64,000 bases of DNA from an uncultured delta proteobacterium (GCA_963832395.1 CAWHTV010000004.1:200999-264998); one strand, 5' to 3'; positions 1 to 64,000 are shown, counted from the stretch's first letter. Numbers and translations are program-made. Notes: generated from the letters alone by a model not told the origin.

Positions 1-410
1 GCACCGCCGTGATTCACGGCGACCGCTCGCAGGCCGAGCGCAACACGGCGCTCAGGACATTCAAGGCGGGAACTTGCCGCGTGATGGTCGCGACCGACGT
101 GGCCGCGCGTGGATTGGATATCCCCGGCGTCTCGCACGTGGTCAATTACGATCTCCCCGACGACGCCGAGAGCTATATCCATCGCATTGGGCGCACGGCG
201 CGGATGGGCCGCGAGGGCGAGGCAATAAGTCTGGTAACACCGCAGGAGCGTGTGTCGCTGGGCCAGATCGAACGGGCGCTGGGCGAAGAGATCAAGCGCG
301 AGCAGGTCGAGGGCTTCGAGTCGCCCGAGGTGAAGGCACCTAAGCCGGTGACGCTGTTCAGATCGGGCGCGAAGCGCGCGCGCGGCGGCCGCTCGCGCTC
401 GCGCTGGTAG
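1..410 (+). CDS. DEAD-box ATP-dependent RNA helicase, C-terminal fragment (5' end outside window)
   Basis: ORF is open to the window edge. It carries helicase C-domain motifs [13 protein letters not shown] (motif V) and HRIGRTAR (motif VI), then a basic R/G tail. Stop TAG 408-410. Confidence 0.85.
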
Positions 411-480
411 GCAGCTCGGCGCGCGATCCAGAAAATTTCCGCTTCAGAAAATTTCCGGACGGACCCTCACCCTATCCTCT

Positions 481-556
481 CCCGCGGCTATACGCGGGCG
501 AGGACGTAAAAATAAAAGAGCGGTCTAGCGTTCGCAGCGGCCCCGCGCGAACGCTA
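481..556. terminator. Hairpin pair between convergent genes (possible terminators)
   Basis: CCCGCG-N6-CGCGGG at 481-498 and a 10-bp stem TAGCGTTCGC/GCGAACGCTA at 526-556. On the minus strand the second hairpin is followed after 8 nt by a T-rich tract. No U-run abuts either stem directly. Confidence 0.3.
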
Positions 557-584
557 CGCGCGATTCGGAAGCGATGACTCGCTG

Positions 585-1739
585 CTAGCCCCACAGTTCG
601 CGGGAGGCGAGCTTCGCGCCGTCGGACATCGCGCGGAACTTGGCCCAGGTGATCGACGGCACCACGCGCGAGAATCCCGCAAAGGTCGCAAACCCGCAGT
701 CGGTGCCCGCGATCACATTCTCGCGCCCGACCACGTTTGCCAGGTTGCGGATGCGCATCGCGACCACCCCGGGATGCTCGATGAAGTTGGTGGTCGAGTC
801 GATCACGCCCGGGATCAGAATCTTGCCCGCCGGCAGTTTTACCTCCCGAAATACCTGGAACTCGTGCTCGTGGCGCGGATTGGACGCCTCGTACGAAATC
901 GCCATCGGGCGCGCCTTGAGCACGATGTCGATGATGTCGCGCAACTCGATGTCGTGATGATGCGGCCCCTCGTAGTTGCCCCAGCATAGATGCAGGCGGA
1001 CGCGCTCGGGCGGAACGTCGCGCAGCGCATGGTTGAGCGCCTCGATATGCAGCTCGGCGACCTTGCGAAACTCGGCCGTGCTGGAACGCGCGAACTGGAT
1101 ATGCCGGCTCATCGCGAGGTCCGGGCAATCGACCTGGAGCAGGAAGCCGGCGCGATGGATGGCGTCGTATTCGACCTTCATCGCGTCGGCGAGCGCGGCG
1201 ATATAGGCCTCGTGCGTGGGGTAGTAGGTGTTGCCGAGGAATTGCGCGATCACGCCCGGCGACGCCGCGCTCAAAAATCCCTCGCTCGCGTTGATGCCGG
1301 CGAGCGCGGCTTTGAAATTGTCGAGGTCGCGCTCGAGTTCGTCGCGGTTGCGGTAGGCGATCGGCCCGTTGCACGACGGCCGTTTCATCGGCGGCACCTT
1401 GCGCCCCAGGAACGCGCGCTGGGTGAATTCGGGGAACTCGGCCATGTCGGCGGCGGTGAGTGAGGCGCGCTTTCCGGTCTCGTCGCCGAAGCCGCTCAGG
1501 CGGTCCTTGACGTAGGTCGAGTAGCCAATTTTGCCCATCTCGCCGTCGTTGACGATATCGACTCCGACCTCGGCCTGCTTGCGCACGACCTCGGCCACCG
1601 CCGAGCGCACGCGCGCCTCCAAAGCGCCGCGGTCGGCGAGTTCGCCGGACTCCCTGGCGAAAAGCATGTCGGCGAGATCGTCGGGCCGCGGCAGGCTGCC
1701 GGTATGGGTGACCAGAATCCGCTCGGTGCTGCGTTTCAT
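585..1739 (-). CDS. Cobalamin-independent methionine synthase II family protein (MetE C-terminal-domain-like methyltransferase)
   Basis: Intact 384-aa ORF. ILVTHTGSLPRP at the N-terminus, with HLCWGN and GTDCGF segments typical of the MetE_C/UROD-like fold family. Confidence 0.75.
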   Translation of the reverse strand: MKRSTERILVTHTGSLPRPDDLADMLFARESGELADRGALEARVRSAVAEVVRKQAEVGVDIVNDGEMGKIGYSTYVKDRLSGFGDETGKRASLTAADMAEFPEFTQRAFLGRKVPPMKRPSCNGPIAYRNRDELERDLDNFKAALAGINASEGFLSAASPGVIAQFLGNTYYPTHEAYIAALADAMKVEYDAIHRAGFLLQVDCPDLAMSRHIQFARSSTAEFRKVAELHIEALNHALRDVPPERVRLHLCWGNYEGPHHHDIELRDIIDIVLKARPMAISYEASNPRHEHEFQVFREVKLPAGKILIPGVIDSTTNFIEHPGVVAMRIRNLANVVGRENVIAGTDCGFATFAGFSRVVPSITWAKFRAMSDGAKLASRELWG

Positions 1740-61705: not shown

Positions 61706-62578
61706 TCACACATATAACGACGCGAGGCGGCGCAGCTCCGCCTGATAATTTTCCGGGCGCAATCCCGCCTCCAGCATCATGATGACGAAGCGATGCGCCC
61801 CGGCCGCCGCGTATTGCTCGAGCCCCGCGTGCACGTCGGCGCGCTCGCCGCGCAGCTCGCGCCGCATGATCGTGATGTCCATCCGGTCGAAGTCGCTGCC
61901 GGCCGCGGCGCATTCCGCGCGCAGTTTGCCGAGCTCATCCTTGAGCTGCGGCGGCGTCAGGAAAATCGGGCACCATCCGTCGCCCCATCGCGCGACCCAG
62001 CGCAGCGCGTTTTTGTCCTTGCTGCCGATGAGGACCGGCGGGCCACCCTTGCGCGCGGGCTTGGGGTAGCATCGCACCGGCGGAAATTTGATGTAGCGGC
62101 CGTCGAACGAGGCCTCGTCTTTGGTCCACAACTCGCGCATCGCGGCCACGTACTCGCGGGTCTGGGTCCATCGATGGGCAAAGTCGGCGCCCAGGATTTC
62201 CGATTCCTCGCGGAGCCATCCCGCGCCGATGCCGAGGAGCACGCGTCCGCCCGAGAAACGGTCGAGCGTCGCCAACTCATTCGCCGTCAGCAGCGGATTG
62301 CGCTCGGGCACCAGCAGCACTCCGGTGGCGACCATCAGGCGCGTGGTGGCGGCAGCCGCCATCGCCATCGCCACGAACGGATCGCAGATGTGGTAGTAGA
62401 TTTCCGGGATGCCGCCCTCGCCGGGACGCGTCTCGGGCAGCGGCGTCGCGGTATGGACCGGCATCACCGAATGATCCGGCAGCCATAGCGACTCGAAACC
62501 GAGCGCCTCCGCGGCGCGGGCCAGGTCGGCCGGGTTGACGCTGCGCTCGTTAGGCGCGACCAGCAGTCCTATCTTCAT
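61706..62578 (-). CDS. LLM-class (luciferase-like) F420/flavin-dependent oxidoreductase
   Basis: Intact 290 aa. GFESLWLPDH and RVLLGIGAGW, typical of the LLM family. Confidence 0.75.
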   Translation of the reverse strand: MKIGLLVAPNERSVNPADLARAAEALGFESLWLPDHSVMPVHTATPLPETRPGEGGIPEIYYHICDPFVAMAMAAAATTRLMVATGVLLVPERNPLLTANELATLDRFSGGRVLLGIGAGWLREESEILGADFAHRWTQTREYVAAMRELWTKDEASFDGRYIKFPPVRCYPKPARKGGPPVLIGSKDKNALRWVARWGDGWCPIFLTPPQLKDELGKLRAECAAAGSDFDRMDITIMRRELRGERADVHAGLEQYAAAGAHRFVIMMLEAGLRPENYQAELRRLASLYV

Positions 62579-62689
62579 TGAAATCCTCGAGCGAAAAGGT
62601 CGTTGCTCAGTGCGCGGCGACCTAACCCCCGGCCCTTTCCCTTGAGGGAGGGGAAGTAAAAATAGCTGGCGCTCTTGTGGCGCGCGGAG

Positions 62690-63064
62690 CTATTTTTTTG
62701 GTGCCGTTACCTCGGTGAAGGCACGGATCGCCTCGACCGCGCTCGGCACGCCGCTATACTGCGAGAGATGGAAAATCATCTCTTTGAGTTCGGTGTGCGT
62801 AATCCCGAGATTGAGCGCGCCGCGCATGTGAACCCTGAGCTCCGCCCCGCGCCCCAGCGCGACCAGCGCCGCCATCGTGATCATCGAGCGCGTCTTGATC
62901 GGCAGCCCGGGCCGGCTCCAGATGCCGCCGAACAGTTCGTCGTTGAGAAACTTGCCGAAGTCGGGGTCGAATCCGCTTAGGAAGTCGTTGCCCGCCTTGG
63001 CGCCCTTCTCGCCCCACAACTGGGTGCGTATCGCCATCCCTTTTTCATGCTTGTCGTCAGCCAT
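62690..63064 (-). CDS. Carboxymuconolactone decarboxylase (AhpD-like) family protein
   Basis: 124 aa. FGGIWSRPGLPIKTRSMITMAALVALG and HMRGALNLGIT match the CMD family pattern. Confidence 0.75.
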   Translation of the reverse strand: MADDKHEKGMAIRTQLWGEKGAKAGNDFLSGFDPDFGKFLNDELFGGIWSRPGLPIKTRSMITMAALVALGRGAELRVHMRGALNLGITHTELKEMIFHLSQYSGVPSAVEAIRAFTEVTAPKK

Positions 63065-63140
63065 CTCATTTCTCCTTTGAATAGTAAGTGTGAAATAGTA
63101 ACTGGTAACTGTATAGTGCGCGCGGCGCAGGGCGCGCGGC

Positions 63141-64000
63141 TTACGACGAGCCGCGAACTTTGACCCCGGCGCGCTCTTCCTGGATCATGAACGAGGCCGA
63201 CGAATCCTTCTCGCCCCAGCCCTTGTTCAGCGCTTCCAGGAAATCCTGCTCGGCATGCGCCGCCAGCGGCATCGGCACGTTGAGCTCGCGCGCAAGCTCG
63301 GTGGCGAGGCCCAGGTCCTTGCGCGCCAGCTTGAGCGCGAAGGTCGCGCGGTCGAAAGTGCCGCGAAACACCATCTTGGGCAGCGCCGCATTGAGCACCA
63401 TCCCCTGCCCGTAAGCGCCGCCTTGCACCGCGCGCAGCAGCGCCTCGGGCGAGACGCCCGCCTTGACGCCCATCGTGAAGGCCTCGGCGAGCAACTGGGT
63501 CGAGCAAATCGCGATCATGTTGTGGACCAGCTTGGCGACCGAGCCGGCGCCGATGTCGCCGATGTAAGTCACCTTGTCGCCGATCGCGTCTAGCACCGGT
63601 TTGACTTCGTTGTAGTCGGCCTCGCTCCCACCGACCATCACGGCCAGCGTCGCCTTGCGCGCGCCGACCACGCCGCCGCTGACGGGCGCGTCGAGCATCC
63701 GGATGCCCCGCGCTTTGAGCCGCGCGTGGACCTGGCGCACCACCGTGGGCGAGTTGGTCGAAAGGTCGATGTAAAGGCTCCCCGGCGCCATCGCCGCGAT
63801 TAGCCCGCCCTCCCCGAGCACCACCGCCTCGACCTCCTTGGGTCCCGGCAGCGAAGTGAAGACAACCTCGGCATCTTTGGCGGTGGCGGCCAGGCTGTCG
63901 GCCCACGTGGCGCCGCCGGCCAGATGCGGCTCGGCGACCTGGCGGCGGACGTCGTTGACCGTGACCTGGTGGCCCGCCTTCATCAGGTTGAGCGCCATCG
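63141..64000 (-). CDS. NAD(P)-dependent 3-hydroxyisobutyrate/6-phosphogluconate dehydrogenase-like oxidoreductase (N-terminus outside window)
   Basis: MLDAPVSGG, YIGDIGAGSVAKLVHNM and LARKDLGLA. The ORF runs off the right edge of the window. Confidence 0.8.
   Translation of the reverse strand, partial: MALNLMKAGHQVTVNDVRRQVAEPHLAGGATWADSLAATAKDAEVVFTSLPGPKEVEAVVLGEGGLIAAMAPGSLYIDLSTNSPTVVRQVHARLKARGIRMLDAPVSGGVVGARKATLAVMVGGSEADYNEVKPVLDAIGDKVTYIGDIGAGSVAKLVHNMIAICSTQLLAEAFTMGVKAGVSPEALLRAVQGGAYGQGMVLNAALPKMVFRGTFDRATFALKLARKDLGLATELARELNVPMPLAAHAEQDFLEALNKGWGEKDSSASFMIQEERAGVKVRGSS

Follow-up and report, generated by a model that had tools for sequence, protein, structure and literature searches.

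Frame-breaking indels in a Binataceae-like metagenome genome probably reflect co-occurring strains collapsed into one consensus

Introduction

The stretch of DNA analysed here (64,000 nt, hereafter the window) comes from an uncultured delta proteobacterium and corresponds to contig C4:200999-264998 of the Binataceae-like metagenome genome G000 (GCA_963832395.1, CAWHTV010000004.1). An original prediction, made from the sequence of the window, had listed more than 50 reading-frame breaks, some of them in essential genes, had noted two long stretches free of such breaks, and had attributed the breaks to consensus errors. The question raised by this locus is what broke so many frames, and why some segments were spared. 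As detailed below, the breaks are probably consensus artefacts, produced where at least two co-occurring strains of about 95% identity were collapsed into one sequence.

The G000 assembly comprises 4.49 Mb in 13 contigs, with 61-65% G+C per contig and no N, and its estimated completeness is 76.9%. With 13 contigs for 4.5 Mb it appears to be a long-read-style metagenome assembly, the platform being taken from the records of its relatives: the closest of these, the MFD metagenome genomes from soil and sediment, were obtained from Nanopore reads only, with metaFlye and one Medaka round, and without short-read polishing (PMC12313526). Five genomes of the same genus (G001, G004, G009, G003 and G002), which are syntenic with the window and show 79-94% nucleotide identity, were used for comparison.

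Results

The window was aligned to the five relatives, and a census of insertions and deletions (indels) was taken, in which an event was kept only if its length was not a multiple of three, at least two relatives covered the site, and every covering relative contradicted the indel. Within 45.8 kb of alignable window DNA, this yielded 77 frame-breaking indels private to G000, namely 64 one-base insertions, 9 one-base deletions and 4 other insertions, a 7:1 ratio of insertions to deletions. Twelve more indels were contradicted by all relatives but one, and roughly ten further candidate breaks were flagged in addition to the 77 and to four insertions in a cyclase gene (Table 1); a probable break was also located at 57851. 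The figure of more than 50 breaks is thus borne out by objective comparison, with 77 events plus the four in the cyclase. Regarding the counting itself, frame counting by tblastn undercounts closely spaced breaks, while Megablast pairwise gap counts were inflated by compensated gap pairs and were replaced by affine-gap alignments from which only isolated events were taken. Over 341 kb of core aligned to G001, this gave 438 isolated one-base insertions and 174 isolated one-base deletions.

The earlier per-gene break counts agree almost gene for gene with the census: one break was found in each of ACAD, APH and coxE, two in coxL1, three in coxM and in the GT-like gene, four in the cyclase, six in the MFS gene and in glcF, seven to nine in the histidine kinase and eight in the CHASE2 cyclase. 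The breaks reported for guaB and ddl were confirmed as well, as the Pfam profiles end exactly at events 32531 and 30536. In guaB, broken at 32531, the open reading frame covers only positions 1-83 of the 345-position IMPDH profile, and in ddl, broken at 30536, the C-terminal domain match comprises only 1-108 of 204. Both genes lie in the main error-laden block (19486-48700), where the broken genes also include coxE, the FecR-like gene, the CHASE2 cyclase, an MscS-cNMP channel, the GT-like gene, the MFS gene, the histidine kinase, an aminotransferase, glcE and glcF. In the middle of this block, the dirtiest of the window, glcD (42150-43607) is fully intact, while downstream glcE has about 2 breaks and glcF has 6, which shows that the patchiness is very local.

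A reference-free frame tracker was also run, in which a Viterbi path through codon-usage scores reveals changes of frame on the same strand that no stop codon explains. For 26 of the alignment-defined events of the window it gave a switch no more than about 20 nt away, and it reported no switch in 10331-20895 or 47528-57556. In a two-model version, 2,064 unexplained frame switches were detected over the whole of G000, and relatives G001 and G004 gave 0.5-0.7 switches per 10 kb, 5-10 times fewer than G000. As measured with spiked-in insertions, the two-model tracker had a sensitivity of 24-44% where GC was below 60% and of 51-77% in the higher GC classes, and correction for this sensitivity (24-77%) brings the genome-wide total to approximately 3,000 events. 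An initial 7-state tracker, trained on genes with high G+C at third codon positions, had suggested that low-GC DNA is clean; this was rejected, and the two-model tracker substituted, because the first one was nearly blind below 60% GC (spike-in sensitivity 0-12%).

We then considered the type of error. An association with homopolymers, which the original prediction had proposed to check, was not observed; if anything, inserted bases avoid homopolymers, since 50 of 63 (79%) have no identical neighbour, compared to 59% for background positions. Likewise, only 4 of the 9 deletions are next to an identical base. The missing bases pointed out earlier near 5110 and 5452 were confirmed; deletions, however, are the minority class, with nine events, three of which (5108, 5453 and 5539) fall in the block 2919-8405.

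What distinguishes the insertions is that the relatives disagree on which base is the extra one. For each relative, the best single-base removal within +/-3 nt was scored over +/-7 nt and uniquely best answers were retained, and the relatives were discordant at 37 of 61 usable insertions (61%). Simulated insertions were discordant in 12.6% of cases when placed at random, in 16.9% when placed at random in the dirty zone, and in 35% when forced beside a variable site, the observed value differing from random placement with p = 1e-18 and from forced placement with p = 7e-5. When at most one mismatch was allowed per allele, discordance was 34%, compared to 9.6% for insertions simulated in the dirty zone (p = 1e-7). 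Many doubled sites match both alleles with 0 mismatches (Table 1), and of the 41 that could be assigned a codon position, 22 are at position 3. The window therefore holds both alleles of ordinary, mostly synonymous polymorphisms in tandem. By eye only, a few insertion sites were seen to lie within CGATCG.

The events are unevenly spread. Their density per kb of alignable DNA is 1.08 in 1-8487, 0 in 8488-19485, 2.32 in 19486-48700 and 0.46 in 58221-64000, an unevenness beyond chance (chi-square over 2-kb alignable bins, p = 4e-5). No event was found against the relatives in 10340-19485 (clean run 1) or in 48667-57850 (clean run 2), and if intact accessory genes with full-length Pfam matches are counted as observable, each of these runs comprises approximately 8.3 kb and has, at a uniform rate, a probability of about 1.4e-5. 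The two long clean stretches of the original prediction hence stand, and the objective count does not show an even distribution. Patchiness is also found genome-wide, with a dispersion index of about 2 and a lag-1 autocorrelation of 0.3 in 2-kb bins over the 341 kb of core aligned to G001.

The proposal that clean stretches coincide with accessory DNA proved correct only in part. Clean run 1 consists of the tail of the cyclase gene, MFS and MAPEG genes (core, 12420-14257), an RHH-PIN pair with a reverse transcriptase (island, 14257-17099) and coxL2 (core, 17099-19485), so that about half of it is core, and the head of the cyclase carries four events. Accessory genes in both clean runs are full-length by Pfam, except for a gap gene cut by an insertion sequence. 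Beyond the window, however, islands are indeed cleaner. In a 520-kb comparison with G001, the closest relative, islands were defined as syntenic sites where G001 has little or no sequence; the 13 islands so obtained (102 kb) contain 17 tracker detections, compared to 56 expected at the core rate, that is 0.17 per kb against 0.55 in the core, or about a third. Twelve of the 13 are below the core mean, and islands are below core in every GC class. GC content was rejected as the driver of break density, since the sensitivity-corrected density in core is roughly flat across GC classes and the stretch with most breaks (34-38 kb) lies at no more than 60-61% GC. Given this flatness, the genome-wide GC trend is largely an island effect.

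Most of clean run 2 is an arsenic island (Table 1), which is single-copy in G000 apart from its IS21-family element. A second arsenic cluster is found on C1:136255-150311, being 72-86% identical and running straight through the equivalent of the IS21 site. The nearest arsJ among the representative genomes of other species shows 87% protein identity, and the idea of a shared mobile arsenic island drawing extra reads was rejected on these two grounds, copy number and foreign arsJ identity. The earlier suggestion that the clean blocks are better supported as shared or multicopy DNA is accordingly not borne out, as IS21 is the only multicopy part of them, and 12420-14257 and 17099-19485 are core common to the relatives.

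The IS21 element sits in the 3' end of gap (50902-51789), whose Gp_dh_C match spans only 1-123 of 158 and which, unlike the frameshifted genes, appears to be truly disrupted. Elsewhere in G000 the element has three full copies and a partial one: the window copy is identical to that on C3 over 2,642 bp and differs from that on C7 by 1 substitution, while the C5 copy has 3 substitutions and 2 T deletions. No extra-base artefact was found in the four full copies (10.6 kb), compared to approximately 16 expected at the core rate. Two of the differences in copies C5:378416-381052 and C7:498197-500836 are G-to-A changes directly after GATC, which could be methylation-related base-calling errors rather than real variants.

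Evidence of a second strain was found within the assembly itself. Contig ends C7:931017-940203 and C13:35575-44767 represent the same locus twice, with 437 mismatches and 36 gap positions in 9.2 kb (approximately 95% identity). Where a codon position could be assigned, 78% of the mismatches fall on position 3, a pattern of real divergence under purifying selection that points to a second, about 95%-identical strain in the same bin. These ends look like an unresolved two-strain bubble, and the bin would thus mix at least two strains. Each separated haplotype has one frame switch in its 9.2 kb, compared to 12 switches in 31 kb of flanking DNA on C7 and 21 in 35.5 kb on C13; 14 of the latter 21 lie within 7 kb (26-33 kb), a short distance ahead of the point, at 35.6 kb, where the split occurs.

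The features of the window are collected in Table 1.

Table 1. Coordinates and characteristics of the segments and sites discussed in the text (positions within the window)
Feature	Position	Strand	Description
Error-laden core block, moderate	2919-8405		ACAD, APH, coxM, coxS, coxL1; 9 G000-specific indels, 1.08 per kb alignable
Cyclase insertion cluster	10051-10336	+	Four uncompensated insertions: 10051 +2, 10232 +1, 10262 +2, 10336 +1
Clean run 1	10340-19485		0 events in 4.2 kb alignable DNA (uniform-rate P about 1.3e-5); full-length Pfam matches; no tracker switch
Main error-laden core block	19486-48700		66 G000-specific frame-breaking indels, 2.32 per kb
Tandem-allele example	28590-28591		Window GT; G001/G004 T; G003/G002 G; 0 mismatches over +/-7 nt after one-base removal
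Similar tandem-allele cases	39315, 39746, 45232, 45830, 48426, 34614, 35199		GC, GC, CG, CA, AG, CT, GA, respectively
Arsenic island	48874-57648		Absent from G001 and G004 (only ~140 bp there); acr3, arsR-arsC, gap, IS21, arsJ, pstS, arsR; synteny break and Pfam
IS21-family element	51757-54399	-	istA 52812-54296, istB 52024-52815; AACGT duplication at flanks
Mostly clean core with small island	58221-64000		Two G000-specific events (58221, 63067), 0.46 per kb; probable break 61423-61500

The cyclase gene (9034-12414, approximately 1,127 codons) encodes zinc-ribbon, cyclase, AAA and TPR domains. Its four insertions were called against intact orthologues of 1,128-1,130 amino acids in G024 and G003; they lie in the AAA region, and the frame is regained after 10336. 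In the open reading frame 9034-10116 the AAA_16 match reaches only 1-45 of 167, and tracker switches fall at 10058 and 10331. The gene belongs to a large paralogous family, with 17 matches in G000 and up to 48 in one relative, and its closest orthologues (84-85% protein identity) occupy non-syntenic sites in G024 and G003.

Some further observations concern other parts of the window. On the minus strand of 60908-61626, the 216-221-amino-acid protein of both relatives aligns in two frames; near 61423-61500 there is a probable break or small rearrangement, outside the indel census, where nucleotide alignments stop at 61435-61501 and a tracker match falls at 61423. A repeat of about 165 bp at 30001-30172, between the neighbour of the GT-like gene and ddl, has at least 15 other copies with 86-97% identity in G000 and relatives, and may be a small mobile or REP-like element. 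Finally, a 36-bp motif at approximately 8493-8528, just downstream of coxL1, recurs with 89-97% identity at a dozen or more places on the contigs.

Discussion

Based on these results, we put at roughly 0.78 the probability that the breaks are consensus artefacts arising from at least two co-occurring, about 95%-identical strains collapsed into one sequence. Two alleles are found at each doubled site, a second haplotype is present in the assembly, and errors are depleted in DNA represented by a single haplotype. Where the strains differ, both alleles would at some sites have been retained in series during consensus building, adding a base and shifting the frame. With a roughly even mix of two alleles, a sequence containing both bases would cost each read one deletion, which is cheap in long-read models, instead of costing half of the reads a mismatch; such scoring would explain the insertion bias. 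Moreover, a model with both alleles in series fits the insertion excess, the absence of any association with homopolymers and the accumulation of errors in shared core. Merging of the reads of two strains is probably what made the core dirty, and strain-specific DNA is probably clean because only one strain contributes to it. Almost no errors are found in strain-specific islands, in identical multicopy insertion sequences and in haplotypes kept apart by the assembler, and the core segments wedged between islands (12420-14257 and 17099-19485) may be clean as the reads of the second strain would misfit that arrangement. Under strain collapse, the clean islands would have lower, not higher, read depth.

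The breaks could also be ordinary long-read noise at low depth, with random indels surviving polishing and the clean blocks being better supported by reads, for instance as multicopy or shared accessory DNA. This reading is in agreement with the published link between consensus indels in Nanopore metagenome genomes and coverage below about 40x (PMC9262707), with patchiness at 2-8 kb, which is about one read length, with the cleanness of the multicopy IS21, and with the 39% of insertions that carry no allele signature. However, we consider it unlikely, as inserted bases match alternative alleles far more often than random insertions do, the errors show no homopolymer link together with a 7:1 insertion excess, and the islands are single-copy and yet cleaner in every GC class, with no near-identical arsJ among the representative genomes of other species. 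In addition, fewer breaks are found where the haplotypes were assembled separately, even though each is expected to have less depth there. The events could, alternatively, stem from the comparison itself, as genuine indels of this lineage or as noise from aligning divergent DNA; pairwise alignments do contain many compensated gap pairs, and each relative has roughly 20 private one-base gaps. Nevertheless, every covering relative had to agree on an event, the tracker, which uses no reference, coincides with 26 such events and reports switches 5-10 times less often in relatives, Pfam profiles end exactly at events, and no intact full-length translation was observed across the listed positions, which leaves this explanation very little room.

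Genuine large-scale pseudogenisation, or a mutator making +1 insertions in a decaying lineage, has the least in its favour. All 77 events are absent from up to five relatives and are hence derived in G000, as decay would predict. Essential single-copy genes should stay intact in a decaying genome, but the window copies of guaB and ddl are frame-broken, and approximately 3,000 breaks genome-wide would inactivate most genes. Furthermore, coding signal persists on both sides of the breaks, similarity to the proteins of relatives resumes in the shifted frame, and recently acquired islands and insertion-sequence copies are spared, while copying the allele of another lineage beside the resident one is no known mutational outcome. 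Real gene decay is therefore effectively excluded, and the original attribution of the breaks to consensus or assembly errors is upheld by the broken guaB and ddl and by the genome-wide number of breaks, far above that in G001 and G004. The low completeness of 77% in a 4.5-Mb assembly of 13 contigs was also counted in favour of an artefact. Programmed ribosomal frameshifting or recoding was rejected, as the extra base is found in 0 of 5 relatives at all 77 sites and the flanking sequence varies between sites.

Several points weigh against the collapse of strains as the source of the breaks. At 39% of insertions no allele discordance was seen among the five relatives; these may represent read noise, or the allele of the second strain may be missing from the relatives. 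The low-GC block at 34-38 kb is the dirtiest, for which a mixture of strains offers no specific reason. The four cyclase events lie in DNA that G001 and G004 lack at the site, and the islands are not perfectly clean. The comparison at the haplotype overlap covers two 9.2-kb stretches only. The platform and pipeline of G000 are taken from the records of its relatives, and the depth of reads, the frequencies of the alleles and their co-occurrence at artefact sites are deduced from the assembly. Lastly, a side-by-side allele artefact was not found explicitly described in a literature search.

The breaks of G000 share features with several known situations. Homopolymer-associated indels of long reads (Sereika et al. 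2022, PMC9262707; proovframe, 10.1101/2021.08.23.457338) resemble those of G000 in being single-base events that fragment genes and lower completeness, genome-wide and in an assembly-dependent manner; in both cases, the indels are absent from relatives and break conserved frames, which in the window is seen in 77 events and in truncated Pfam domains. Unlike those published coverage-dependent indels, the errors of G000 avoid homopolymers, are 7:1 insertions and carry the alternative allele at variable sites. Collapsed assemblies, as represented by Flye in the Strainberry paper (PMC8302730) and by Strainy (10.1101/2023.01.31.526521), are similar to G000, with related strains merged and strain-specific segments separate; in the parts of these papers considered here, Flye is reported to yield a single consensus from strains of E. 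coli that align at 98.65% identity (PMC8302730), and mosaic consensus and lost strain variation are described, but no frameshifts from serial alleles, the link to which is drawn here from the sequence of G000.

In reductive, pseudogene-rich genomes, such as those of Mycobacterium leprae and recent insect symbionts, essential genes remain intact, deletions dominate and broken genes lose their coding signal. G000 resembles them in its many frameshifted genes, and differs from them in that essential genes are broken, insertions dominate, coding signal is kept, and mobile and accessory DNA is spared.

Conclusions

The signature described here, a +1 insertion outside homopolymers, at a variable site, mostly at codon position 3, and sparing strain-specific DNA, is of some methodological value. 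If general, it would flag such errors in long-read metagenome genomes without recourse to reads, would explain low completeness in contiguous bins and would reveal strain-private islands. It would then mean that callers of long-read consensus fail systematically, and in a manner so far undescribed, when strains are mixed, a failure both detectable and correctable from the assembly alone. If strain collapse is the true cause, intuition is also reversed, the clean regions being those with less read depth.

For the biology of this organism, the finding is a warning and not a discovery: nothing in the window should be taken for a pseudogene, a split gene or a case of recoding before it has been compared with relatives, and the gene calls and completeness figures of G000 are degraded throughout. 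There is a further possibility, to which we give slightly less than even odds, that a second, uncaptured strain has left a readable footprint in the extra bases, with both alleles of a polymorphism recorded at each doubled site, in which case the map of dirty and clean DNA would separate what two co-occurring Binataceae strains share from what is private, namely the arsenic island, the reverse transcriptase-toxin island and the adjoining segments.

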